Below are positions 1,954 to 63,789 of a stretch of 64,000 bases of DNA, piece by piece. The position numbers and the translations under genes are program-made. The stretch's first letter is position 1. Every line of letters begins with the position of its first letter. Source of the DNA: Balanoglossus misakiensis. Lineage: Eukaryota > Animalia > Hemichordata. The stretch is from positions 1,253,908 to 1,317,907 of the forward strand of contig CM082579.2 of NCBI GenBank assembly GCA_040954595.2, in the 5' to 3' direction. The notes beneath the pieces were generated by a model, which was given only the letters and a program-made list of their open reading frames with translations, was not told the origin of the DNA and ran no database searches.

Positions 1954-2431
1954 CTACGGTTCAACGGGGCATGGGTCTGTACACACTTCGGGGCCGAGTA
2001 CGGCACAGCAGTAGAATTCACTACAGGGACAGTTTTCAGGTTCTACTCCAGACCCGTTGAGGCCAATCAGTGCATCCAGCAACTGATTTTCTGCTTGTAC
2101 CGATGGATTCATGTCGATCGAGATTTTAACCGGAGTGTCCCTAAAATCACCTTGGTGAAAAAGAACACATACAAAGTGTGAGTTTACATGATTATCAAAA
2201 ACGAGTGTCGCTTGTTTGAAATGAGACTTCAAATATCAAGAGAGTCTGATTTGGAAAATGCGTGACTTAATTTGGGCATTGGTTACGCGACATCGATAGC
2301 GGACAGCTCGCCGGCTCTCCCCTGAGAGAATTGTTAAATCACAGAAACAAACAAATATATATGTACTCACCGAAACACTCGACTGTAGCTATGACGACAC
2401 AGAGAACACCCAGAATGAATACACCCCTCAT
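1954..2431 (-). CDS. Small secreted Cys-rich peptide precursor, paralog A (85 aa, most divergent copy)
   Basis: Coding exons 2431-2371 (MRGVFILGVLCVVIATVECF+G, donor GTGAGT) and 2150-1954 (acceptor tttcaccaag; GDFRDTPVKISIDMNPSVQAENQLLDALIGLNGSGVEPENCPCSEFYCCAVLGPEVCTDPCPVEP*), joined by a phase-1 intron. Non-coding exon 1 ends at 2681. A 3' UTR exon starts at 1760, with AATAAA at 1626-1621. Confidence 0.88.
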
Positions 2432-4612: not shown

Positions 4613-5235
4613 ATGAAGACCGCATGTGTTTTAGTTTTCTTCTGTGTGTGTGCCGCCATTGCGACAGTTCAATCTTTCGGTAAGTGTTACAGTTCGACAT
4701 GTTTACATTTTGATCACATTTTTCTGCGTTTTGTACGTTTGTGTACTTATCTTTGATTTGACAGACTTAGAACCGTTACTATGATCTACAGAACCTTGCT
4801 ACAAGTATCTATCCAACAAGAATGTATATATAGGCCAGGTGCATGGTTGGTGTCTATTGATGCAACTTTCCCAATCGGTTTTACGTGATATGAGATACAA
4901 TACTGCAGCCCCAGTATGCCTTACATCATTAATGATTATTTCCACAATTAATGAATTCAATTACACGCTGTCAGATTTGATTATAATGTCACAAGTGCCA
5001 TATATTATAGAATGTTTACAGAAAAATATATTCGACTATCGCAGGTGATTTCAGAGATACTCCTGTGAAGATACAAATCGATATGACGCCAAGCAAATCC
5101 TTCCAGGAAGACTTCGTCGACGCGTTGGTCTCCTACAACAACGAAGGTTCAATTGCAATCGATTGTAGCATCTGTCTCCACTGTGTTATGTACGGCTATG
5201 GTGCCTGCCCAGCAGGATGCCCTGGCTGTACTTAA
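4613..5235 (+). CDS. Small secreted Cys-rich peptide precursor, paralog B (85 aa)
   Basis: Exons 4613-4679 (MKTACVLVFFCVCAAIATVQSF+G|gtaagt) and 5045-5235 (GDFRDTPVKIQIDMTPSKSFQEDFVDALVSYNNEGSIAIDCSICLHCVMYGYGACPAGCPGCT*). The 3' UTR intron spans 5249-5661, with an AATAAA run from ~5824. Not in the ORF track. Confidence 0.92.
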
Positions 5236-5372
5236 TTCTTTCCAACAGGTATGTTAGGAGTCACAGCGATTTGTTCCATATTTTAAATGATTGTCAAAAC
5301 ATCATTTTGAACTAAGTGATTAGTTGATTGATTCTACAGCTATGAAGCTTTCTGACTGCATACATAGATGAG

Positions 5373-5581
<209 letters not shown>

Positions 5582-6580
5582 AGCAACAGTGTTTAGCAAA
5601 GAATACCTTTTAATGAAAACAGTTGTCAAGTGCTAACTTCGTCACACTCTTTCCTTTCTAGTTTTTCGTCGTCGGGGAATTGTGAAAGCCAAACTTTCGA
5701 CACCTTAAGCAACGGAACTGACAATATCTTCACGACTGAGTGTGTCTACATCATTAACATGTACCTAAAGTTTGGTTTCACTTGGAATGATCTTGTGGTG
5801 TTATGTATCTTATGGAAAGCAGAATAAATAAATAAATAAATAAAATAGAATACGGCTACCAGAGTTGTTTGTTCCTTGTGCTTAAAGTCACATGCACGCA
5901 TATACTTGTAATTTTTTGTCTATAAACGTTGTTTTGTGTCTTAATGTATCCGAAATGAGTATCATAGCCAACCAGGATAGACTACGAACCAAACAATCAG
6001 AGTTCATACTTTTGTGAAAGGTCAGAAAAGAAATGTTATTGCAAAGTTCATGTTGCCTTCCATTCGGTAGTTGCAACAGTAAATAAGCGTCTGCAAATAC
6101 AGTAGTCCCACTTTGTGAAAAGGCCGATGCTGCTATATATGGTGGTCTGATATTGAATGAGTTGAGTGTTTGTCAATTAACATTGCTGTTGCCATGGAGA
6201 GGTAAACCAATGTAATCAAATATAGAAATAATGACCATTAACGTTTGTTTATGGGCGAGGGCGAGGGGAAAGCCAACAATTCCTAGCCCATGAATTTTGG
6301 CTTTCTTCGAGCTTTCGGTAATGTTGAGTGATTGAAATAGCGTGGCAACACTCTTTTATGAGAAGGCAAAAGTTTTGATAACAAATGTCATCTGGCAATA
6401 GCGTGACGATATATGATATATGGCAGAACAGTAAAATCAGTGGCGAAGAAGGAATATTTCTCACGTAAATCAATTGGGATGATTGATTGGGCTTGCACAA
6501 AAAGTATTTTGAGTTCATTACACAATGATACTAAATGCGTGTCCCAACACTCGATTTGCTCAAGAAATGACAGGTAACCT

Positions 6581-7063: not shown

Positions 7064-7456
7064 ATGAAGATCGCATGCGTTTTAATTGTTGTCTACTGTG
7101 TCGTCATGTCGACAGTGCAGTCTTTCGGTGAGTACAATTAATAAATTTCATGACGTTTTCTCCGTAAATTTACAACATGGATTGGCGGCGATTTTTATTT
7201 CACATTGGTGAAAATTGTGTTCTTTCATTCAAAATTTTGTACAGTTTCACATTTTTTATACACCGCAGGCGACTTCAGAGATACTCCCACTGAGATAACC
7301 ATCCATTTGACCCCGAAAGCGGATTTCCAGCGAGATTTCATCGATTATCTCATACTCGTGGGAAGTGGTGGTTTTCAGGCGAGCTGTTGCTGCAACAGAA
7401 TTTGTTGCCAGATTTTTGGATATGGGTATTGTCCCGCCGGTTGCCTTCAATGCTAA
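7064..7456 (+). CDS. Small secreted Cys-rich peptide precursor, paralog C (83 aa, 8-Cys core)
   Basis: Exons 7064-7127 (MKIACVLIVVYCVVMSTVQSF+G|gtgagt) and 7269-7456 (GDFRDTPTEITIHLTPKADFQRDFIDYLILVGSGGFQASCCCNRICCQIFGYGYCPAGCLQC*). The UTR intron spans 7471-7827, with AATAAA near 7992. Confidence 0.92.
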
Positions 7457-8935
7457 AAACTTCAAGTCAGGTACGATACTGAGGAACTGTTAATTGTTTT
7501 GTACTTTAATAATTATAATCGCTTCGTATCATATTATCTTCATGATTTTATATTAAAATATATTGGGTCAAGTGTCGTGCCGCATCACATCACATCACAC
7601 ATGTCATGTCATGTCATGTCACATCACTCACGTCACATCACATCATACATTCTGTTTGGCAAGTTCCGTCAAATAAGTTTCGCGAAGTAATTATGTAAAT
7701 CTGAAGTTTCGTAGATGTCGATGACACAGACGCACGCCAACACGGGCATGAGCTTCCGTGGTTTGCACTGGTGTTAATATAAATATCATAAATCAGTTCT
7801 CACTGCTACACACCCTTTCCCTTTCAGATGCTCATCACAGAAGAATCGTGGACTTTAAACCTACTGAAAACACCGTGGCCGGATCAGGGCTCGGACAAAG
7901 TGCTTAACATCTGTATACTTATTCAGTTTACCATCTAGCCTAAATGACTGGCTGTAGCAGCATGCATGTTATTAAGAGTAGCTCACTGATAAATAAAACG
8001 TTATGAAATAAGATTCGTTACAACACTACACGTGTCCAGACTCTTTGTTCTCTCGGGACCTTATCTGTGCTAAAGCACTTGTCCGCTGAGATAGTTCTGG
8101 TGAATTGCAATGTGGTGAATGGTGTGAGGGAATGGCAGGGAGGTGGGGACGGGAAGAAAGGGGGATCAGAATGAAATAAGTAAAGAAGAGATTGCGAAAT
8201 GAGGGAAGGAGATTTCCGAAAGAAAAAGGAATACAAAATGTACGAGGCTTGACAAACAGACTGTCATGTCAAACACTTTGCAAGACAGAGGAGGAAGGGG
8301 AGATGTTAAAATCCCCACACAGCTTCTTACAGAATAAAACTGAAATGTTCTGCGAAATTTCTAACATAGTCCACCTTTGCCACCGGCGACTTATAATAAA
8401 CCGGAAGAGAAGACGGCTTTCATATAGGTATATAACTGGAATGAAACTGAAAAATCGGGAGAAACATCGTGTTATTCAAAGATTGAGCTCCACGATAGAC
8501 GACAAAATGATTCATGTTAGTGGCTCTACACAAGCCACTTCAAGAACACGCTCCAAGTGGACACAAGGGAAATTGAAGGTTTCCTGATTTGATTTAAAAT
8601 AAGCGAACGTTCATTTTCAAGTTCACTTCAGATTGCCCATGGACTCGTAAGCATACTTCAACAATTTAATTAGGGGAAGTGGCATTATTATTTTTTGGTC
8701 AATTTGAATTTATTCCTCTGACTTCAAAGCAAATTACAACCAGGGTATAAATAATTTGTTGAAACTGGAACAGTCTTAAAAAGACAGTTTCTCGTAAACT
8801 GCCTTGGAGACATTTCATTAATCACGGACATGATTTTGAACTATTACTCAATTATAGAAACTTTTCTTTTTGACGTGTGTGGAACACCACTTGTGCTCAA
8901 CTTCCAAGTGTAAGGAAGTTCAGGCATCAGATAGT

Positions 8936-9479: not shown

Positions 9480-11043
9480 ATGAAGACCGCGTGCGTTCTG
9501 ATTGTCATCTTCTGTGCCGTCATTTCGACAGTCCAATCTTTCGGTGAGTACAATCTTGAATCTGCTGTTACGACACGCTGGCCGTTCAGTTCCGAAACAG
9601 GGCAGTGAGCAAATATAGACTAATACTGAATGGCTCGCTTTGGTGAACCAACCAGCGCAGCACGCAACAAAGACGGTCAACAATAGGCACACCACACGTT
9701 ATTTCCTTGCTTATGGAAACTTTTAATTACTACAACTAAACATTGGTAAATATAAAAAGATTGTACACTGGGAAGAAAGCACACAAAAATAAATGACTAC
9801 CTTAAATGTGGCCAGGTGTGGGAAATGAAAGACTAAAGTCTTAGGTTCTGTAGCGCACGACGAACGCGACCAGCACCACGGCAGTCCCAACAGCGACGTT
9901 CAGTCCCAACAACGACGTTCAGTCCGAGTAGCGTTCTGGCACAATTCCCCGGTAGACGGCACGGCTTTCAGACGAATTCCCCCATGAGGTAGCACGACTT
10001 CTGGGCGCGGTTTCCAGACCAGTGCAGCATGAAATATGGCACAGCTTCCAAGTCGGCGAGGAACAGAACAGCTCACTCGGGCAAGTCCAAATTAGTAGCT
10101 ACGCCGCAACACAACGTGCGGGCTTTTTATATGGGGAAAATAATGAATGCACCACACCTGGTCACGCAAATATTCAAATTACGAAAGTAAGCGAAAACAC
10201 ACCTGGTCACAAAACAACAGCAAACTTCTCCTACGTAACACTGCTAACTGCATTACTTTGTATTTTGAGTACGTACTGCCACACATTTGCTGCTTGATGT
10301 TGTCTGTTGTATTTTTTGAGTATATAGCCTACTATGTATGCATGTACTATTTATTTCATTTTCGTATAAAACTGAACAATTCCGCCAAAATTCACCTAGA
10401 CTCATTGAAAATTAACTTTTAGTTTGGAGGCGTGAAAACTCCCATAAGTGTTCTTTTATAAACTTATTAGTCATATAGAAACTTTTTTTTATATATTTGG
10501 TGCCTGTGGATAACACAATACCAAGAACATTACGCCCAGGGTATATTCTCAACGACCAATGGTGTAAACGTTGTATAATCGTCACTGTCTACAACTTGCT
10601 GGTTGATTATTGGTATACATAAACAATCTGATTTGTACTCCCCGCGCCATGTGCTACAGAGCGAATATAGACACTACAATAAGAATTAGTTTATTTGACG
10701 CCCTATTATGTCTACATGACCCATTATGCGTGGAAGACAACACGGTTCGTAGACTTTTATGGGTATAGCAAATTATAAATACTATATGTAAATTTTCATC
10801 TGGCTTGTGTGGGAAGTAACAGTTTTCACAGACTACGTTTCTGTAACTCTAACAGGCGATTTCAAAGATACTCCCGTGGAGATTGTCATCCATATGGAGC
10901 CAAAGAAATCCTTCCAGGAAGGTTTCGTCGATATGTTGATCTCCCAAGGCACCGGTGGGTCAATTGCATCCAACTGTTGCGACCCTTACTGGTGTGTTAT
11001 TTACGGCTACGGTTACTGTCCAGCAGGATGTCCTACCTGTTAA
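9480..11043 (+). CDS. Small secreted Cys-rich peptide precursor, paralog D (83 aa)
   Basis: Exons 9480-9543 (MKTACVLIVIFCAVISTVQSF+G|gtgagt) and 10856-11043 (GDFKDTPVEIVIHMEPKKSFQEGFVDMLISQGTGGSIASNCCDPYWCVIYGYGYCPAGCPTC*). The UTR intron spans 11057-11282, with AATAAA at 11422. Confidence 0.92.
9566..10240. mobile_element. Solo LTR (Gypsy-type, 675 bp) in intron 2 of paralog D
   Basis: Starts TGTTACG and ends CGTAACA (TG...CA with a 7-bp terminal inverted repeat). It is flanked by the 4-bp direct repeat CTGC (9562-9565, 10241-10244) and is absent from the paralogous introns. Confidence 0.8.
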
Positions 11044-12474: not shown

Positions 12475-12701
12475 CTGGCGTTGACACAAGACTCTTCACT
12501 CCTACCAAGGTAATTCCGAAAGAAGGAACTTTCTGTCGACAAAGATCTCCTGTAACAGGTAAATATGCAATCTATACTACCTTCGATTTATGCCTAATGC
12601 AGGCTGCACGTGTTGACGCGATTGATGTCTAGCACCTGTTAGTCTTCGTCGTGACTAAAATCCTCATTGTTTTTTTTTTTCTCCAAAGTTTTCCTATCAC
12701 T

Positions 12702-13052
12702 ATGAAGACCGCCTGCATTCTGATTGTCATCTTTTGTGTCGCCGTTTCGATGGTGCAATCTTTCGGTGAGTACAATTCGTACCTAATTGTCACATTCTGA
12801 AGGTTTTATTTTTTGTGACATCTAAAATGGAAGTGCTTGCATTTGTTATTCCTTTGCCTTGTACAGCTCCGCTAAACGTTATTATATTTCGCCGCTGGCT
12901 TGGAGCCAAGCAAATCCTTCCAGGAAGAATTCGTCGACGCGTTGGTCTCCTACAACAACGAAGGTTCAATTGCAGTCAATTGTTTAAGCTGTATCCAGTG
13001 TATTATGCACGGCTATGGTGCCTGCCCAGCAGGATGCCCTGGCTGTACTTAA
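12702..13052 (+). pseudogene. Paralog E of the Cys-rich peptide family: probable pseudogene (exon-3 acceptor deleted)
   Basis: The signal exon 12702-12765 is intact (MKTACILIVIFCVAVSMVQSF+G). Relative to paralog F, ~120 nt containing the acceptor and GDFKDTPVEIVIH are replaced by 24 nt of filler (12877-12900). The remainder reads EPSKSFQEEFVDALVSYNNEGSIAVNCLSCIQCIMHGYGACPAGCPGCT* to 13052. The best remaining acceptor (12866) gives a shifted frame. Confidence 0.8.
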
Positions 13053-13499
13053 TTCTTTCCAACAGGTATGTTAGGAGTGACAGCGATTTGTTCCATATTT
13101 TAAATGATTGTCAAAACATCATTCTGAACTAAGTGATTAGTTGATTGATTCTACAGCTCTGAATCTGTCTGACCGCATGCATGCACAGACGAGCGTTATA
13201 AAGTTGGACAGGATCAACACTTATGATATTGTTCGCCATTTGTTAAATTAAAGTCAAATCTTCATATTTTCACTATGTAACAATCTTTCCTTTCTAGTGT
13301 TTCATCGATGGAAGATTCTAGAAGATAAAACACATATTCGGTAGAACAATGCAAAGTGCTTCATAACGCTACACACCACAACACCATCTCCAAGAAAGGA
13401 TTGACTAGCGATTTCTTGTGTTCTGTAATTTGTGGAAATAAAGAAAATTATAAGCATAAACGTTTGAATTTGTTGTGCCATATCACAAACGGATCGTTC

Positions 13500-14420
13500 C
13501 ACTGTATCTAGCCATCTACCAATATCACGTTCATCCCTAGTATTTCGACTGTCCCTGGGGAAACGCTCAAGTATCTACCCCGACCCCTGCCTGACCTCCT
13601 CCCTGTGTCCAATGAGACACAGTCCCTGTGGATGAGACGAGCGGAGTTTTCAGGGCTTCTTCAGAAATGACAGTAGAATTAACGTCTGTTCTCTCGAACC
13701 CGGAATCAACTTTACTGTTGAAAACAACCTCCCTATCCTGCGATAAATTAGCATCCCCCATATACACGTGGCCATGATACGATTTTACCGGACATAATGC
13801 TTTCTAAGAAAACTGCACTAATCTAAAATCGTACAGCCGACACAGAGATCTGACGGGACGATGAATGCCTAAATGAACACTGTATAGCTTTCAAATCACT
13901 GCAAAAGAAGGCGATACAAAAGCCCAGAGTGAATGTGTTGCGCTGACCTGCGTGAACAGATCCCGTAAGGAGTACGGTGCCCAGAGCGCTCAACACGCCA
14001 CGAACTTCTGTGACCTCTCTTCTGCACACAACAATAAAAGGTTCTCAACAAACAACATTCATCGACCAAACCTGACCGCTGCGTCGATCCAGACCTTGGC
14101 GAATATTCGGAAGGGGCTCCTGAACCAAAGTTGCCCCTAACAAACCCACCGCTGCCACCAATTGTAACGGAAATCCAAACGGTCGCGGTCCACCTCTGAA
14201 AACTGGTAGCGCGCAGGCGCACACAGCCTCTCACAAACACTGAAACAGCGCCATCTCTACACACGGCCGGAACTCGACGGAAAGCATCGGCTCACACCGA
14301 ACTGCTACGGTAAACACGTCATAGAACTCGCGATCGGTGACCCGGGGCTGGCTATCCGGTAGGGATAAAACAGGACTAATTAATCAGGCTCGAACCTAAA
14401 AAAACATGCTGAGAAGTGCT
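13500..14420. mobile_element. Unclassified GC/CpG-rich insertion, probably a transposon fragment
   Basis: Abrupt compositional change relative to the flanks; not shared with the duplicated peptide-gene units. No intact ORF or terminal repeats recognised. Confidence 0.3.
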
Positions 14421-14446
14421 GGACATGATAAAACTGTCTACAAATT

Positions 14447-14448
<2 letters not shown>

Positions 14449-14485
<37 letters not shown>
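14449..14485. repeat. (GA)n microsatellite
   Basis: Direct reading of the sequence. Confidence 0.9.
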
Positions 14486-14486
<1 letters not shown>

Positions 14487-14949
14487 GTTTGGTAAATGGT
14501 TTTCTGATATCTTCATATCATAATATCAAATGTCATAAATGTCGACCATTATGCATCGTATTTCCCCACACCTCTTTCTGGAGTGCCCAACTGAAGAAGC
14601 AGAGGAGTCAGGGTAACCGAGACTAGCAGACATACAAGTCAGTCCAATAACGGTCACCATGGCTACACCACCACGCAAGCAAAGCCACACAGAAACACCA
14701 TGTAGAATAATAAATCACATGGAATAGCAATTCCATAACAATATAAAATCAGTAACGAAACCATGTTGACAATCAGAAATTAAATTAGCAACATGTTTAC
14801 ATAAAAAAAAAATCTCTAAAACCTTACTGAATAATGGTAACGATGACGCTTGCCTGTTTTTTCTTACATCCTGCTTATCACCCTTTTAAAAATCGACACG
14901 ACGTTGTTACATTTAAAAAATGTTGGAAAAATTCCATTGAATTCCAACC

Positions 14950-15870
14950 ATTGAATCTATCCAAAACTGTATCACTGACATCAAGCAGTGGATGACTAAC
15001 AAATTCCAACTGAATGGCAGTTAAACTGAAGCAATAATAATATCGAGACTATCTGCAAAATCATCCTTAGGCCTTGCCGTCATTTTGGAGATTCCGTGAT
15101 ATTGTTTGCCTCCAGTGTTAAAGACCTAGGAGTCATAATTGACTCCAACTTGAACATGTCTGATCATGTGCAGAATACTTGCAAAGCTGCCTACGCCCAA
15201 CTTAGACAGATAAGCTCTATCCGTCATTTCCTCACTCAACAAGCCACTCAAACTCTCGTCATTTCACTTGTTCTGTCACGCTTAGAATGTTGGAACTGTC
15301 TCCTTTCTAGTTGTTCTAAACAGCTTATAGACAAGTTGCAAAGAGTGCAAAATGCACAGTACATACCAAATCGACAACTCCGCTATTCATCAGATTCTAG
15401 ACTTGTCATCATTCCTAGAGTTTCCACAAAGACATATCCCCTCAGATTCGCACTACCAACTTTCACTAACGCATTGACATGTTCAAAACTTACATGTACT
15501 TGGGCGTCGTATCCACCTTCTTTCCAGCAACTGCTTGGGTAAAAAAAACACGGGGACGCATACACGTGGACTTCCAAATTTAATACGGAAAAAAAAACAA
15601 TTACACGGACGCCTGCGCACTGACCGCACACGCCAGGTCAAATAAAGCGCAATGCGACAAACGAAACTATGAATATGCATTGAATTCATGACAAAGATCG
15701 TTCGCATATATTGGTCCCAAATTATGGAATAATCTTGTGTGTGTGCCTTGATTCCTGTGCCTGTGTTTCAACAAGTCCTCCTCTTCAGTTTACTTGTTGC
15801 CATCCCGTGCCTTGAGCTCTGATTATCAGAGATTATAGGCGCATTATAAATTGTCTTTCTTATTATTATT
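14950..15870 (+). mobile_element. Degenerate 5'-truncated non-LTR retrotransposon (L2/CR1-group LINE), 3' end
   Basis: C-terminal RT-region motifs IQNCITDIKQWM...QLN and VKDLGVIIDSNLNMSDHV...LRQISSIRHFL...LVLSRL...KLQRVQNA, with stops and deletions. The 3' tail gccttgagc...ggcgcattataaat...(TTA)n ends at 15870. Confidence 0.85.
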
Positions 15871-16743: not shown

Positions 16744-17188
16744 ATGAAGACCGCCTGCGTTCTGATTGTCATCTTTTGTGCCGTCGTTTCGATGGTGCAA
16801 TCTTTTGGTGAGTACAATTCGTACCTAATTGTCACATTCTGAATTGTTTTATTTTTTGTGACATCTAAAATGGAAGTGCTAGCATTTGTTATTCCTTTGC
16901 CTTATACAGCTCCGCTAAAATTAAGTTTAACTCATTGAAAATCAAGTTTAAGTTTCTAAGCGTGCAAATTTCACAAACTTTGTTTCTGTAACTCTAACAG
17001 GCGATTTCAAAGATACTCCCGTGGAGATTGTCATCCATATGGAGCCAAGCAAATCCTTCCAGGAAGACTTCGTCAATTTGTTGATCCAAGGCAGTGGTGC
17101 TTCAACTGCAACCGATTGCAGCAGCTGTACATGGTGTCAGATTTACGGCTATGGTTACTGCGCACCAGGATGCCCTGGCTGTAGTTAA
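16744..17188 (+). CDS. Small secreted Cys-rich peptide precursor, paralog F (83 aa)
   Basis: Exons 16744-16807 (MKTACVLIVIFCAVVSMVQSF+G|gtgagt) and 17001-17188 (GDFKDTPVEIVIHMEPSKSFQEDFVNLLIQGSGASTATDCSSCTWCQIYGYGYCAPGCPGCS*). The UTR intron spans 17202-17406, with AATAAA near 17539. Not in the ORF track. Confidence 0.92.
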
Positions 17189-18272: not shown

Positions 18273-18657
18273 TTAATGACAGATGCAGCCTGCTGGACAC
18301 ACACCGTAACCATGAACGATACAAGACGCTTTGTTGCAGCAATCAACTGCAGCTGTGCCGGCACTTCCCACCGTCATCAACTCTTCAACGAAGTCCTTCT
18401 GGAAGTTTACGTCAGGGGTCATATGAATGACAATTTGAACAGGCAGATCTCGGAAGTTTTCTGTTGAGACAGGAAATAATTATGCAGCCAGTTTTATTTG
18501 ACCTGTTTCGATTCGATTCTCTCTCTCTCTCTCTCTCAATACAAAGGTTAAAAACTCGTCTTTTATAAAAGAATACAAAAGTTTCGCGAAACTTACCAAA
18601 AGATTCCACCGTTGCCACGGCGACGCACAATAATCCAAAGACAAAAACAGATTTCAT
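18273..18657 (-). CDS. Small secreted Cys-rich peptide precursor, paralog G (82 aa)
   Basis: Exons 18657-18597 (MKSVFVFGLLCVAVATVESF+G nt|gtaagt) and 18460-18273 (ENFRDLPVQIVIHMTPDVNFQKDFVEELMTVGSAGTAAVDCCNKASCIVHGYGVCPAGCICH*). Exon 1 ends at 18792. A probable UTR exon starts at 18074, with AATAAA at 17891-17886. Confidence 0.9.
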
Positions 18658-23900: not shown

Positions 23901-26900
23901 GCTCATATCTCTTTATTAACTTTATCGCAACTGAATGGCTAGACTACCAAGTACCTTAATAAGTTAGCTATTACAAACTTGAGGGTCAAACCTGGTTGCA
24001 ATGAAAGAGTTGAAATCCATAAAATTGGTGGTGGCTTTATATAGTTTCTATGATATGAAGGAATAAATCGTGTATACTGTATCCCAAATCTGAGACGTTC
24101 ATATCTAATGAAATTGATTTTATTTCTTTGTTCCAGAACGCCAGAAAAGAAGAAATTGGCAAAATCATCATTTACACTACCAGTATGAGTATTATCAGGG
24201 GCACTTATGAAAAATGCCAATTTGTGAAGAAAATCTTTCAGAATCACAGAGTGAAGTTTGAAGAGAGGGATGTATACTTGAACAAACACAATCAGAAAGA
24301 TTTACATGAGAGGCTGGGCAAGAATGTTCCAATAACAGTACCACAAGTTGTCATCGATGGAGAAATATTAGGGGTAAGTCAAACAATAAGAAAGATGTTT
24401 AGCACCGTGTATTGATTTAAAATATGTTCTAGAAAGTCTCTCAGAAAGCTGTCTGATCTATATAGGTATCCAGGTCAGTTTAGTCAGATTTCATTGATTA
24501 GGCCATTCTTAGCTATCCAATATTATTGTACATTGAAAGCCTGCCACGGTTTCCATGGATATTATCAATTTTCACATAAAATTTTGTGCATTTACTTCCA
24601 GTACTTTAAGTTGATCAGCGAGCTTTGGGAAGTGTACCAGTAATTGATTTCATGTGGTTAAAAATATCCATCTATTAATGAGAATATGAAAATAGCTGAC
24701 AGAATCATGTTTCGTGACATTCCTGGTAAAAGTGGGTGATGGAGTAAATGAATTGTCATGTTTGATGAGGTAAATTGCCTGAGATGACGTCATCACCACC
24801 TGCTGTTGAAGTAATACCATCCTGGCAACATGAATTGACTCTGATATTCTGAATTCTGAATTACATCGTAAATATTAAAAGAAAAGCAATTGACCAATCT
24901 GTGTTCCCAATTAACAGTGACGATGTTTATATCAAACTAGAAGATACACTGAGTAATGATTACTGAATATTCCAGCACTCATTTCCGTGAGCAATTTGAA
25001 GTTTCCCTGAAGCTATCCGACTGTCGCCACTGACATGAATCCTTCAACTCCACTCTGTTGCCATGGTAGTTTCAAAACAGACAATGCGACTGACGCATGA
25101 ATTTTTTATTTGGCACAGGACTGTTATGTCGTGTTTCAGTTGGGGAAGTGTGCATATTTCCCGGTTTAGGGAGCATTCGTTTTTTACAGGGAGGGGGGGG
25201 GGGCGGTGGAAATCAGGGGGGGGTTTACTTTTACAAAGCAGTTTTTAGGGGGGGACAAATTTTATAATCAAGGGATTATTATATAGGGACTGAAAGGGGG
25301 GGACTTGAAAACTTTGACGGCTAAATATTTATTTTGAGTCCACAAAAATGCAGTTTCGCGTCCTTTATTTTACAAAATTTTCTAATGTGGGAGGGGGACA
25401 CCCCCTCCCACACCCACCCCCTCCATTCATCAACACCTTTCAATCATTGACTGGTTTATCTAGTGTCCCAGGTCAGGGGACTTGCCCCCACCCCATGATA
25501 ACTTTGAGCGGCGACGTTAATTTGCTTTTGCTGGGTTCATTAAAATGCAGCTTTGAGCTCTGTATTTTATAAAATTTTCTTACGTGGGAGGGGGACACCC
25601 CCTCCCAAACCCACCCCCTTCAATTCTCGGTTTACAATGTCTCCCAGCACAGAATACAAATACTTAAAAAATAAAAACAATGTTCAGTTTTACTACCCAC
25701 TGATGAGGGGAAACATCGGTTTCAAATTCTTTTCATGGGAGCGCTGTGTCCATGATAAGTTTAATCCGGTGGATAAACTTTTTTTTTTTTGGGGGGGGGG
25801 GGGTCACATTTTAGAAAAGTAATTTCCAGGGGGGGTTGCCTTTTACATTTAGTCGGCGACTCAAATTCCACCGGCCCCCCCCCCCTCCCTGTAAAAAACG
25901 AATGCTCCCTTACCTGCTGGGTAAATCATGTCACAATTCACACCTACAAATCATTGAATGTCATTTTCTATGTGATGTTTGCTTGCTTTCCAAACAAGTA
26001 ATCATGGGAAGTGAATTTTGGTGACAGGTGAATTACAAATATTGACTTTAATACACAAATTTATCACCTTTACTGTTGTCATTCTTATAGCGCTGAACCA
26101 TATTTTTGAGAAATGTCACAGAAAGGAAATAAAGAAACCTTGAAAAGTGGGAAGTGACCCCACTTTTGAAACAGGCAGTAATTTCATCACAATAACATAC
26201 ATTCTAATTAAGAATATAAAACTTAATTTCTACCTCAGTATAACTTGCAATTTATGAAATTATCACCCATTGGTATTTTATGAGCTATGACTATTTCTCA
26301 ACCCAGTACTTAAAAGTCTAACATTGCTACTGTCCTTATTAAGTGGTGACTTTGATGATTAGTAGCATTTTTCAGTGACGTGCTGTTTCCACGGTAACAA
26401 CAGAGTAGTACATAGTATTGCTTTTCTGGAATTTTCTAGTTCAATAAACCAGAAGCCTATACAGTTGTCATTAAGCAGGAAAATGGGGTTTAAGTGGCAT
26501 TTGAATTGAAAGACTTGGTTGATATATTAAAATTATAAGTGCCTTTTTGTATTTCTCAAGGGTTTGGCTATAATCAAAAGCAGTGTGTGTGGAAGTTATT
26601 GAAATGGTCTTCAAAGCATTAGTCTGCTAAGAATACCTGTAGTAGTTGAAGCTCACATATTTAGGTCCCATTTGGTATACGTATACATATATACCAGTGG
26701 AGTCCTTTTAAAAATAAAAATTGAATTGTTGCTATGGTGTGGCTGATTTCAGTGAATTGAACATGGTGAATTCCAGTCCTTCTAACAATACATGCAGCAA
26801 CAAAAGATCACCTGACCAACATAAGTCATCTGGTACAAGTTGGTTCAATTTGCAAAAAGCCAGCTAGGCCAAATAATCAATCAGACATGTTACAGTCCTG

Positions 26901-37677: not shown

Positions 37678-40600
37678 TTAGACATCGATCTGCTTGGCTT
37701 TGACCTCGGAGCCATGAGGTCTGCAGTAGATGACATTCTGCACCAACATTAAATTTCCGATCATGAGTGTGCGATTACAGACTTTGCACTTCTGGCAGGA
37801 TTTATGGAACACTTTTCCATCAGTCTTTGCCATCTCAGCCATGTAGACGTGTGTCCCACAGATGATACATTTCTCAGTCTTTGGGGCCACAAACATCTTG
37901 CGGGAGTTCCCCGCTGGCTTCTTGTTGATCTCATTTTTCTGTTCTTCCTGTGTGGATTCACTTTTGAAACTCTGCAATCTGCTGCTTATTGACCCTACAG
38001 ATTTTGGCTGAAAAGCGGAAAAGTAAAAAAAAAAATAGTTGATGAGTAACTTTCTATCTGCAAGTAAATTCACCATCCTTAAACCCTCCTCATACTAAGA
38101 TGTGGTATCACCCAAGACAAGCTGACTGGGTATATAATTAGACTGAAAATGCAGTCCAATAAAGAGTCCAAGCAAACAGATAAACTCACCTTCTCTATAG
38201 TATCATCACTTTCTTTCTCAGTTTCTTTGACTTTTTCTTCCTTTGATTCTGTTGTTTCTTTTGCTTCCTTCTCCTCTTTATCCTCCCTCTCCTGTTGTCT
38301 CTGCTTTGCCATGGCAACCCACATGGGAACCCCGCCATTGGCCGCCTCTTCTGACGCCCTCCTTTCACTGAAAGTGCGGATTTTCAGATGCCCCGCCTCT
38401 TTCTCGCGTTCACTGAAAGTCCGTATCTTGATTCTGGCTTTGTCTGATTCTTTTTGTGTTGGCAGAATAATTTTCGGTGTTGTTGTTGTTGTTGTGGTCA
38501 CTTTGTCTTGTTTGTTTTCTTTGTTTTCTGCTTCTGTGGGTTCAATCGCTTTCTTTTTGGATGCCTTGAAGCCCTCTCTCTTTTTCTTGGCTTCTTCTGC
38601 TGCATCTTGCTCTGTGCCTTCACTGGCTGACACTATAATCACTTCCCTGGACTGTTCTGTCTGTGGATCAATCCTCTCAATTTTCAAGGTCCGTTCCTCT
38701 ACAGTAACAAGCTGACTTGTCTCCACAGAATACTTGCCTGGCCCTTCCTCAATGTCCACTTTCAGCGGCTCAGGGGTGGGCTTTTCAAAAGTTGCAGATC
38801 TATGCCTCAATTCCGGGATCTCAAAAGTACCGGACTTGATGTGTAACTCTTTGGGTTCAAAGCTAGCAGATCGGACCCTCGTTTCAGGCTTCTTAAAACT
38901 GGTGGCTTTCTCAACTTCTAATTTTTCTGTTTCTGTCAGACTGCTTCTTTTATTTTCAACAGATTTCTTTCTCTTCGGTTCCTGCGGGCTCTGTTTCTGT
39001 TCCTTGAATTCCGTGACTGTTTCCTCTTTTTCTGGAATGTGGAGTGTGACTGGTTCTTGTGGCTGGACAGCTTCTTTCCCTTCAGATTCCATGGTTGGTT
39101 CCTCGATCTTCGGTATTTCCAATTCTTTAATTTCAGCAATAGGAGCAGTCACTACCTCCTTGGTGATAACTGTGCTTGAAGTCTTTGTGACACTTTCCCT
39201 TGTGATGAAGATTTCTGCAACAGATGACAAAGATTGACACATAATCAATAAACATGGTCACAATTGTATACATAAATGATCTGTAAAAATCTAGCTAATC
39301 TGTCACTATTGAGAATCTAATCACTGTATCACATAATATCTATTTTAAAAATCATATGATCAAAATCATACGACAGACTGAACAAAATTTGACTGTTGGC
39401 ATTTTACCTCTTGTGAATTCCTTGGAAGATGGTCTTTCTACCTTCTCCCTCTTCTCCACCTTAACACTAGAAACAGTGACAGTCTTTCGGACATCATCTT
39501 CTGTCTCTTCCGGTGTGTTTGGCAGTTCTGATCTGGACCCAGATCGCTGTGTGCATACAGAACCAAAGCAGAAATATGGTCAAACATGATACAGAAACAA
39601 AACCAATACCATTCAGTATTTTCAGGACATATAGACTGAAGTTCCCCTAGAGATCCTGGCCCAGAATATAGCAGCAACTCACCTGCGCAGTCAGACGACT
39701 TCTGCTGGACGCCCTCCTGGCTTTTGGTGCGATTGATATTCTATGTAATGCAGCCTCATTGGTTAAAATTGTATCACTTGTAACAAAATCAAAGTCAATG
39801 TCACCAGCATTGGCTGATAAAGAGAGACAAAAAATACTGATGTTCAATATTCTAATCTGACATGTAATCATGCAACTTAAATTTGTTGAGCTATTTATAA
39901 ATAGCAGATAAAAGATAAAAGCTGTGGAGTCCAATTAAGCCTCTCAAAATACAGAGCCGAAAGCACAGTATAACCAAAATGCAGTCTTTCCATATGGGCA
40001 TTTCACAACAGCTACATCAAATACTACCAGTAGAATCTGGCAATCAGCAACAAAAATGATTACCAGTAACTATACACAATAAATGAATAACATTAACCTG
40101 TGCTTTTGCTTTTCTTGTAACCAAACATCTTCCTCTTCCTTCCACCAAGAGGTGATGAGCTAAGACTTTTCTGTCATGAGCAAAAAGAAGAGAGAAATTC
40201 AAAAGGTGATCTGATAAAGCCTACAAGAAGGGATGCATCAAACACCAGCAAGGGCAGAACTGGATTTTGGAGATGATGGGGCTGGGCATAAGATTTTATT
40301 GTTGTAATATGATTCACCTAGACTATACAAATTAAATTTATCAGGGGATTACACTTGGTATCAGAAGTGACATGTCCACTGTTTCATGTCACATGGATTT
40401 TATCAATGTACACGTACTTTCCTCAGATTAATATGGATGAAGTCCGTGTAATGGCTAGAGGGCCATGCGGCAAAATATTGTAATAAAACACAATATCGCT
40501 TCCATACATTGACTTATAACGAAAGAAGGCATTTCTAATGTATACAAATGATTGCATCTGAATTTGACATCTGAAGGTTACCCGTTTCACCACCAATAAT

Positions 40601-62007: not shown

Positions 62008-62462
62008 TTTGATTTTCGCAGAAATGTGGCGTTGTCCAATCAACGAAGTCGTTATCACAGACTAGCCAAGCACAAGCCATTTGTTCTTTACAATGTGATT
62101 GGCTAATCTTGATCAGGAAATGGACAATACGAAATGGGGCACACAAGCGGGACAACGAGTAAACACGGTGAAATTTAACAACTTTAAGAACACACAACTC
62201 ATTCTTTTTTAAAATAAAAATATGCTTATGATATTTTTGTATATCGTAAGACTACATTTTGCTCCAAAAGGTGACTTATTAGACGGCGAGTGTAACTGCC
62301 CTACACCTATCAGAATATGGACTATTCCACGTTCGCAAGTACAATATACTTTTGTTTTCAGCTTGCTGAAATATACACGCAAAACACGGAAATCAAGGCC
62401 ATTCAGTACGTGATTAAAGATAAAAGCACCTACAAACCCACTTGTTGCTCACTGCCAGAAAT
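62008..62462. promoter_or_regulatory. Short bidirectional promoter between CKAP2-like and HHIPL
   Basis: About 455 bp between the divergent ATGs, with CCAAT at ~62036 and ATTGG at ~62098. Confidence 0.55.
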
Positions 62463-63789
62463 ATGATTTCGGGTAGTTTTCTTTTAGCGTCTAGTCTTCT
62501 TTTCAACGTAGTTGTCGTTTCCTGGACAATCCAGCCCAAGTGTATCGACAACCGTTCCCCGTTTACTCCGATCGGAGGTCTAAATTTTTGTCGCACCTTC
62601 TCGAATTTCGGCTGCTGCGACGTGGAGCAAGACCGTCACATCAAAGACTTTGTTGAAAGTGAGTGGGAAAAGTTAGAGAGCGAAAACAGATTGTCTGCTT
62701 ACTGTTACGGCCAGTTCAAAAACCTGACCTGCTTGCAGTGTTCTCCATTCAGTTTTGATATTTATTTCGCTGGTGAAACAGATGGAGAAAATATTTTCCG
62801 GTCCACTGCCAGTCTTTGCAACGAGTTCTGCCGTGAGTATGTCAATGCTTGCCCGGAAGTTGCAGATCGTCTGCTAGATGTGCCACGTTCGTCCTCAGAT
62901 GTGGCCACAAGATGTGCCGCGCAAACCATAGAAAGCGAAGAAAAATGTTACCCCAAAAGCGGCAAAATAGAAACAGATTCTCCGCTTGGAGAGCTAGACT
63001 GCATCTGCACGAAGAAAATTGCCGGAGGTTTACGCAATCCTCTGGTACTGACCCATTCGAATGATGGAACTGGTCGCCTCTTCGTTGCTGAACACATTGG
63101 GGTGATAAAAATAATCACGATGGGAGAAGATGATAGTGAAGATTCCCTGGTGGAAGAACCTTTCTTAGACATACAAGACAAAGTTTTCACCACTGACACA
63201 CCAGGCGATGAGAGAGGACTGCTTGGTTTGGTCTTTGATCCGGGTTATCATGGTAACGGATACTTCTATGTATACTACAGTGCTGTTGCAAGAGATGAAA
63301 ACTCGGACCATATAAGTGTGGTGTCAAGATTTTCGGTTTCAAACCAAGAAAATAAGGTAAAAGTTTGACTGTAGTCATTATTCCGAAAGACAGTCACACT
63401 ACCCATCAATTACCCCATATAGTTTTAATTGGCCATTAGGCCTATACAGTGTTGCAGAAGCACCGGTAAATATTGTTACACTGTACTTAAATTGTATCAT
63501 AAATGCGCATGTTAGCAGTAAAAACGCTGCGGTAGGTCTGGGGAAAACGCTCGCATAAATTGTGAAAGATATACAGCGTACTTCCCCTTGCTTTATTAAT
63601 TTTAATTTATCTTCTCCTTGCTATTTAGGCAGACCCTGGTTCCGAGAAAATAATTCTGGAGATAAACCAACCAGGAGCAGGTCAGAATGGTGGCCAGCTG
63701 GTGTTTGGTACTGATGAAAGTGGTCATCATGAATATCTCTACGTAACAGTGGGTTATGGTGGAGCTGATGAAGAAACTGCTGTGGATAA
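62463..63789 (+). CDS. HHIP-like protein (HHIPL1/2 family), 5' part; gene continues beyond the window
   Basis: Signal peptide, folate-receptor-like Cys domain (QPKCIDNRSPF...GCCD...CLQCSP...LCNEFC) and GSDH beta-propeller (GLRNP...NDGTGRLFVAEH.G...PFLDI...DERGLLGL.F.P...NG.FYVYYS). Exon 1 is 62463-63356 and exon 2 is 63629-63789. Confidence 0.9.

Follow-up and report, generated by a model that had tools for sequence, protein, structure and literature searches.

Two members of a cluster of seven related genes for small cysteine-rich peptides in the acorn worm Balanoglossus misakiensis, here called B and E, are likely to be old paralogs between which a tract of 255 nt was exchanged by gene conversion. 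Inside this tract B and E differ at a narrow peak of codons in the N-terminal half of the Cys core, and the pattern is best read as accelerated amino-acid change in that half, with moderate support for positive selection from the alignments of genes in the window (by which we mean the whole 64-kb stretch of DNA that was analysed). Gene E itself is likely to be a frameshifted pseudogene, predicted no longer to make the peptide.

The gene cluster and its surroundings

The seven genes, A to G, lie between positions 1954 and 18657 of the window, B to F on the plus strand and A and G on the minus strand (Table 1). Each encodes a hydrophobic leader of 20-22 residues (signal peptides were called by eye), followed by a phase-1 intron and then a single exon that carries both the pro region and the C-terminal core; for C and F, spliced contigs place a non-coding exon at both the start and the end of the gene. 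The core contains six or eight Cys residues, their number being even in all seven genes despite shifting spacing. Gene B, for example, is intact and encodes 85 amino acids, with a core of the form C-x2-C-x2-C-x7-C-x3-C-x2-C.

Table 1. Genes and other features discussed in the text, given as positions in the window.
Feature	Positions	Strand	Remarks
Gene A	1954..2431	-	Most distant paralog; intact; 6 Cys
Gene B, coding span	4613..5235	+	Exon 2 CDS 4613-4679, exon 3 CDS 5045-5235
Exchanged tract, B side	5088..5342	+	
Divergence peak in B, codons 24-35	5158..5193	+	
Gene B, exon 4	5662..5830	+	Non-coding; approximate end; the E-type spliced contig in X3 has this exon at its 3' end
Gene C	7064..7456	+	Intact; 83 aa; 8 Cys; spliced contig in X3
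Gene D	9480..11043	+	Intact; 83 aa; core CC-x4-C-x7-C-x3-C-x2-C
Gene E, exon 2	12689..12765	+	ATG at 12702; predicted signal peptide of 21 residues; phase-1 donor
Gene E, exon 3 as spliced in X3	12867..13065	+	Cryptic acceptor, its AG ending at 12866
Gene E, lesion	12877..12900	+	24 nt of unique filler in place of 120 nt of F (16920-17039)
Exchanged tract, E side	12905..13159	+	255 nt; 14 differences
Divergence peak in E, codons 24-35	12975..13010	+	N-terminal half of Cys core; 10 of 36 nt and 8 residues differ from B
Gene E, exon 4	13298..13444	+	3'UTR when read in the normal frame of the family; approximate end
Gene F	16744..17188	+	Intact; 83 aa; sister of E outside the tract; spliced contig in X3
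Gene G	18273..18657	-	Intact; 6 Cys

The sequence TGTCACGCA stands directly upstream of a TATA-like box in all seven genes, at 2786(-), 4028, 6581, 8936, 12450, 16182 and 18909(-). Exact matches occur at exactly those seven sites, out of 12 matches to a looser pattern, and the sequence is likely to be a promoter element common to the seven genes.

A second haplotype of gene C was seen in run X3 (positions 7095, 7311, 7365, 7435 and 7870-7926), with 10 substitutions listed and two small insertions. Three of the substitutions change residues (Y>F, T>N and S>T), one is synonymous and six lie in UTRs; none of the 10 falls in the codons of the N-terminal half of the core, which counts against allelic hypervariability there.

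Beyond the cluster lie exons of genes with glutaredoxin (24059-24415), LIM (37678-38094) and GSDH (62424-63368) domains, the last of which we take to be HHIP-like. For the glutaredoxin-domain exon, identity is 91% with a protein of Ptychodera flava and 71-75% with proteins of Glandiceps and Saccoglossus (three matches among 54 candidates), in keeping with an acorn worm as the source. High-depth repeats are present in intron 2 of gene D (about 9600-10230) and between E and F (13600-14700 and 15030-15700), where the frame at 15030-15542 bears what we take to be a resemblance to a decayed retroelement fragment.

Searches for protein homologues yielded none at E<=0.01 among 59 candidates of 26-112 amino acids, or at E<=10 among 5,069 longer candidates, although such searches can miss short divergent peptides, HMMER filters drop weak matches and blanks are not proof of novelty. 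Pfam gave nothing above cut-off for the seven exon-3 products (E up to 1) or for six cores (E up to 10), the best match in a PDB sequence search was a stretch of latrophilin lectin domain at E=0.29, and an Atlas search reached a best score of 0.76, under the lead level. A profile search of 1.84 billion representatives returned two matches, both discarded as repetitive unrelated proteins; also set aside was the one match among 244 candidates in a metagenome scan, a chance similarity over 11 residues in a contig that is GC-rich and looks microbial. The predicted structure was of low confidence (pLDDT 63, pTM 0.32) and too weak for use, and comparison with this model gave no Foldseek match and a best VIA Z of 2.1. 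No hemichordate family of such peptides emerged from a search of the open literature. The peptide family appears to be undescribed; the evolutionary pattern that it presents is already well known.

Divergence of genes B and E within the probably exchanged tract

Genes B and E align without gaps over 48 codons (5089-5235 against 12906-13052). The nine codon differences reported in the first-pass annotation, all of them residue-changing (D>E, I>V, D>N, S>L, I>S, L>I, H>Q, V>I and Y>H), were recovered in full: nine of the 48 codons differ, at 11 nt, with no synonymous difference and with one codon changed at all three positions (AGC/TTA). The clustering described there was likewise reproduced, eight of the nine changed codons lying within a 12-codon span, codons 24-35 (hereafter the patch), and the sequence that follows is indeed nearly identical, with three differences in the 107 nt of 3'UTR and intron directly beyond. 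Within the tract, 10 of the 14 differences fall in 34 of the 255 nt, a concentration matched by 5 of 200,000 shuffles, or by 141 of 200,000 when the triple change is counted once.

Outside the tract the two genes are far apart. They are 22-23% divergent in exon 1 and in the signal exon, and 15-33% past position 5342, as against 2.8% at the non-coding positions of the tract. Informative sites among genes B, E, F and D divide 16 to 0 in favour of BE|FD over EF|BD within the tract and 3 to 25 outside it, where E is the sister of F, the two differing at 4.8% over 1,025 non-coding columns. Conversion would be the likely source of this island of similarity, and judging from the pattern of shared sites it probably ran in both directions. 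The pro-3' and core part of E appears to derive from B, since F and D agree against it, and a transfer from the E/F lineage to B is suggested by the first ten tract codons of B, which are those of F, together with the tract intron of B, which is 6% from that of F.

The history of the patch can be followed in the same way. Its informative sites comprise four that group B with E, none that groups E with F and two that group B with F, and in trees of the patch B+E beats E+F by 7.5 lnL units (RELL 0.06) and D+E+F by 7.1 (RELL 0.035), D+E being just 0.9 lnL worse. Since the patch groups B with E it looks young and appears to lie inside the exchanged tract, and its age would then be at most that of the E-F split (4.8%) or, conservatively, of the D-E split (12.8% non-coding), a bound based on four sites. 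The 10 differences in 36 nt exceed a level of 4.8% at P=5e-6 and one of 12.8% at P=0.013, the latter value rising to P=0.08 if the triple change is taken as a single one. The first-pass annotation had allowed that its case for selection would be undone if the identical flanks were recent conversion tracts around an older divergent patch. That scenario is borne out as regards the flanks, which form a conversion tract in genes otherwise about 23% apart, but seemingly not as regards the patch, which itself groups B with E (4:0).

A further stretch of identity joins D and F, which are the same over the acceptor and the first 43 nt of exon 3 (10856-10898 and 17001-17043) against a non-coding divergence of 16%; this is likely to be a second conversion tract. 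Directly beyond the end of the B/E tract, intron 3 of B contains an ATTG microsatellite of about 210 nt (5369-5581).

The lesion and putative transcript of gene E

The 120 nt of F that lie opposite the lesion in E comprise the acceptor of exon 3 and its first 13 codons, both of which are absent from E, and the 48 codons of E compared above have no native acceptor upstream. A 445-nt contig from X3, with zero differences from exon 3 of E, carries the junction 12765>12867 (GT..AG), which leaves the Cys core in a different frame from the signal peptide. This evidence of splicing consists of one contig from one sample, X3 being labelled 'DNA?' and interpreted here as RNA because its contigs are joined at the GT..AG introns of C, E and F. 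Among the X3 contigs listed for the stretches compared, none had the exon-3 sequence of D or that of B itself, which carries no weight as to expression. The predicted product in the shifted frame is a precursor of 97 amino acids with a 76-residue Arg-rich tail containing 12 Arg, 2 Lys and 2 acidic residues. Three alternative in-frame AGs downstream in E were considered and rejected, the pyrimidine tract being poor and none of the contigs listed having a joint to them.

The premise that B and E are two working paralogs, on which the first-pass annotation had proceeded, consequently fails on this haplotype, given the genomic deletion and the one out-of-frame contig. All six Cys residues of E and its open Cys frame are preserved, however, a persistence from which loss of the acceptor would appear to have been late.

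The E-type contig in X3 matches exons between 12508 and 13065 and then 5662-5775, so finishing in exon 4 of B and not in that of E, and where exon 1 ends it carries one base more than the window sequence. It may be either an assembly chimera formed via a 55-nt stretch common to B and E, or a real hybrid allele.

Tests for selection

The earlier argument for selection was the absence of any synonymous change among the nine differing codons. This statistic is weak alone and not significant in neutral simulation, where the probability of no synonymous codon was 0.06-0.10 over the 48 codons and 0.28-0.38 in the patch. A pairwise GY94 test between B and E gave nominal p values of 0.012 (48 codons) and 0.043 (patch), both obtained on the boundary where dS=0 and for a pair chosen out of 21, and the 10 differences in 36 nt of the patch are not above the B-E background of 28 in 124 (p=0.28).

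Evidence in favour of selection comes from other pairs. D and F, a pair without either B or E, differ at 15 of 36 nt at the same codons, compared with 16.3% in 1,319 non-coding columns of their alignment (p=3.5e-4), the BLAST-aligned columns understating non-coding divergence; the D-F level in the patch is matched by 0.5% of non-coding windows. D-F, D-E and E-F all peak at the patch codons above non-coding levels. Against selection, pairwise omega in the patch is near 1 (D-F 1.14, E-F 1.25).

Regional omega, estimated for six genes with one tree per region, was 0.41 in the signal, 0.22 in the pro-5' part, 0.73 in the pro-3' part, 1.95 in the N-terminal half of the core and 0.21 in the C-terminal half, the value of 1.95 not differing from 1 (p=0.19). 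These codon models were run with in-house GY94/F1x4 code, not PAML, and yield asymptotic p values without simulation calibration; gene A was left out as too distant and one B codon was dropped from the signal alignment. The M7 versus M8 comparison, put forward in the first-pass annotation as a check on its claim, was not significant when run with region-specific trees (p=0.16-0.23), nor was M1a versus M2a (p=0.19-0.69), M8a versus M8 giving p=0.04. With a single tree that ignores the mosaic the corresponding values were 0.046 for M7/M8, 0.046 for M1a/M2a and 0.008 for M8a/M8. Conversion, according to sections of PMC3924837, inflates single-tree site tests and can mimic selection; the same sections describe a narrow divergence peak amid conversion as a sign of selection, and dead copies as able to act as templates.

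The claim of positive selection on the N-terminal half of the core thus parts with its zero-synonymous basis and is kept, as the best reading, because the patch groups B with E (4:0) and D-F peaks at the same codons. The fast-evolving zone may start upstream of the first Cys. The linker preceding the core is highly variable too, reading VSYNNEG in B and E and IQGSGA in F (5119-5157 and 17075-17110).

Interpretation of the divergence peak

Taken together, we give a slightly better than even chance to an explanation in which B and E are old paralogs that came to share the 255-nt tract by conversion, and in which diversifying selection acted on the N-terminal half of the core before E lost its acceptor and became a pseudogene. 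The product is predicted to have a signal peptide for secretion, a helical pro region and a small core with three disulfides. In that core the GYG..C-x3-C-x2-C tail would form a constrained scaffold (omega 0.21) and the N-terminal half a variable face (omega 1.95) under diversifying selection, within which the second Cys would move between CC and C-x2-C while the Cys count stays even. The putative variable face, proposed in the first-pass annotation as the target-binding surface of an arms-race molecule, would contact a changing outside partner, for example a microbe, a predator or a receptor. Conversion would homogenise the remainder of the exchanged region around the patch, and the 12-codon difference would have accumulated inside the tract before the frame of E was lost.

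The foremost alternative, which we consider fairly unlikely, dispenses with positive selection by invoking nested conversions: an older exchange over the whole exon, followed by younger tracts on each side, would leave the patch as a remnant drifting under relaxed constraint at non-Cys positions. The patch is, after all, no more divergent than the B-E background, the probability of its having no synonymous codon is about 0.3, omega over the family is not above 1, exchange both ways implies several events, and selection can be mimicked by conversion (sections of PMC3924837). Against these points, the patch has four BE|FD sites and no EF|BD site, and peaks at the same codons in D-F, D-E and E-F would be unexpected from random tract ends or mere relaxation.

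A broader construction, speculative and in our estimation unlikely, would see in the cluster a library of acorn-worm peptides for defence or signalling, hitherto undescribed and built on a new Cys scaffold whose second Cys can move. Selection would drive the variable face, reciprocal conversion and unequal crossover would shuffle exon 3, the dead gene E would store core variants and return them, and the contig with an E 5' part and a B 3' part would reflect a hybrid gene that really exists on the other haplotype.

It is quite unlikely, in our judgement, that the patch was instead acquired complete, either from a divergent allele of B or from a paralog not seen here, with E as an archive of that donor and with any selection taking the form of balancing selection or patch shuffling. 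E may already have been dead on receiving the tract, the deletion stopping 4 nt short of the tract start, and its branch carries more changes (0.68 as against 0.33 per codon); in addition, one codon is altered at three bases, CAG ATT in the core is common to F and C, and a second haplotype is present. A donor for the patch was nevertheless not found within the 64-kb window, neither version having any 11-mer outside its own place, and the alleles of C are not hypervariable in the core. A template-switch origin of the triple change was also considered and rejected, palindromes reaching 6-10 nt at most.

Very improbable is survival of E in the shifted frame by way of the cryptic acceptor, with the E-side changes selected in the predicted 97-residue precursor. 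A spliced contig is present, the Arg-rich frame is open up to the last exon, and the E-specific triple change falls where B has a stop in the shifted frame; but D has this frame open throughout and F nearly throughout, so that its openness would be inherited, the six Cys residues and the Cys frame are intact in E, and there is no Pfam match. An assembly artefact, or two alleles placed in tandem, might be imagined from a short near-identical segment in a heterozygous animal and is scarcely credible, since the flanks are 15-33% different and independently assembled, read-derived contigs carry both patch types, that of B in X1 and that of E in X2 and X3 (runs of one sample), which argues against assembly error.

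We thus continue to prefer diversifying selection within an exchanged tract. If selection is confirmed, the cluster would represent a compact deuterostome case of the pattern of conotoxins and mussel cysteine-rich peptides, offering seven peptides that are short enough to synthesise and whose Cys framework is unmatched. The pair B and E also makes a teaching case, in which a pairwise signal that is entirely nonsynonymous lies inside a conversion tract and the core of one gene is out of frame.

Comparison with known systems

The cores of D and G start with CC-x4-C-x7-C, which resembles what we take to be the spacing of alpha-4/7 conotoxins, and five of the seven genes finish with C-x3-C-x2-C, presumably similar to the C-terminal motif of guanylin and heat-stable enterotoxin. 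Unlike alpha-4/7 conotoxin, B, E and F carry C-x2-C-x2-C and the cores here have 6-8 Cys residues. No Pfam, PDB or protein-database match of the peptides to alpha-conotoxin, guanylin or heat-stable enterotoxin was found, and the likeness to all three is a resemblance in spacing only.

A closer parallel in architecture is MgCRP-I of Mytilus, described in sections of PMC4558851 as a lineage-restricted multigene family of secreted prepropeptides, of unknown function and including pseudogenes; no sequence match of the peptide genes to it was found. As in the MgCRP-I genes portrayed there, a conserved pre-pro region (here omega 0.41 and 0.22) is set against a hypervariable Cys-rich C-terminus (1.95), and there are four exons, the first non-coding, with a phase-1 intron past the signal exon and a six-Cys mature part. 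Differences are equally evident from those sections of PMC4558851. Whereas MgCRP-I has the invariant order C-C-CC-C-C, spacing varies over the seven genes here, and that order occurs only in A, where the spacings are different. MgCRP-I has a dibasic KR/RR cleavage site, whereas none precedes the core here, the sole dibasic pair being a KK early in the pro region of D. The MgCRP-I core is encoded in exon 4; here pro region and core both lie in exon 3 and exon 4 is non-coding. Site-model support for MgCRP-I is strong (P about 1e-8) in contrast to the weak site tests reported above.

As regards the evolutionary pattern, sections of PMC3924837 describe divergence peaks amid interlocus conversion in exon 5 of the red/green opsins and in MHC and R-gene clusters with pseudogene templates. 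The present case is like those systems, as depicted there, in its homogenised coding and intron flanks, its narrow coding peak and its non-functional copy in the cluster. It differs from them in that one partner is predicted to be dead, that the tract forms an island of 255 nt while the genes diverge by 23% elsewhere, and that the peak is seemingly younger than the tract that contains it.
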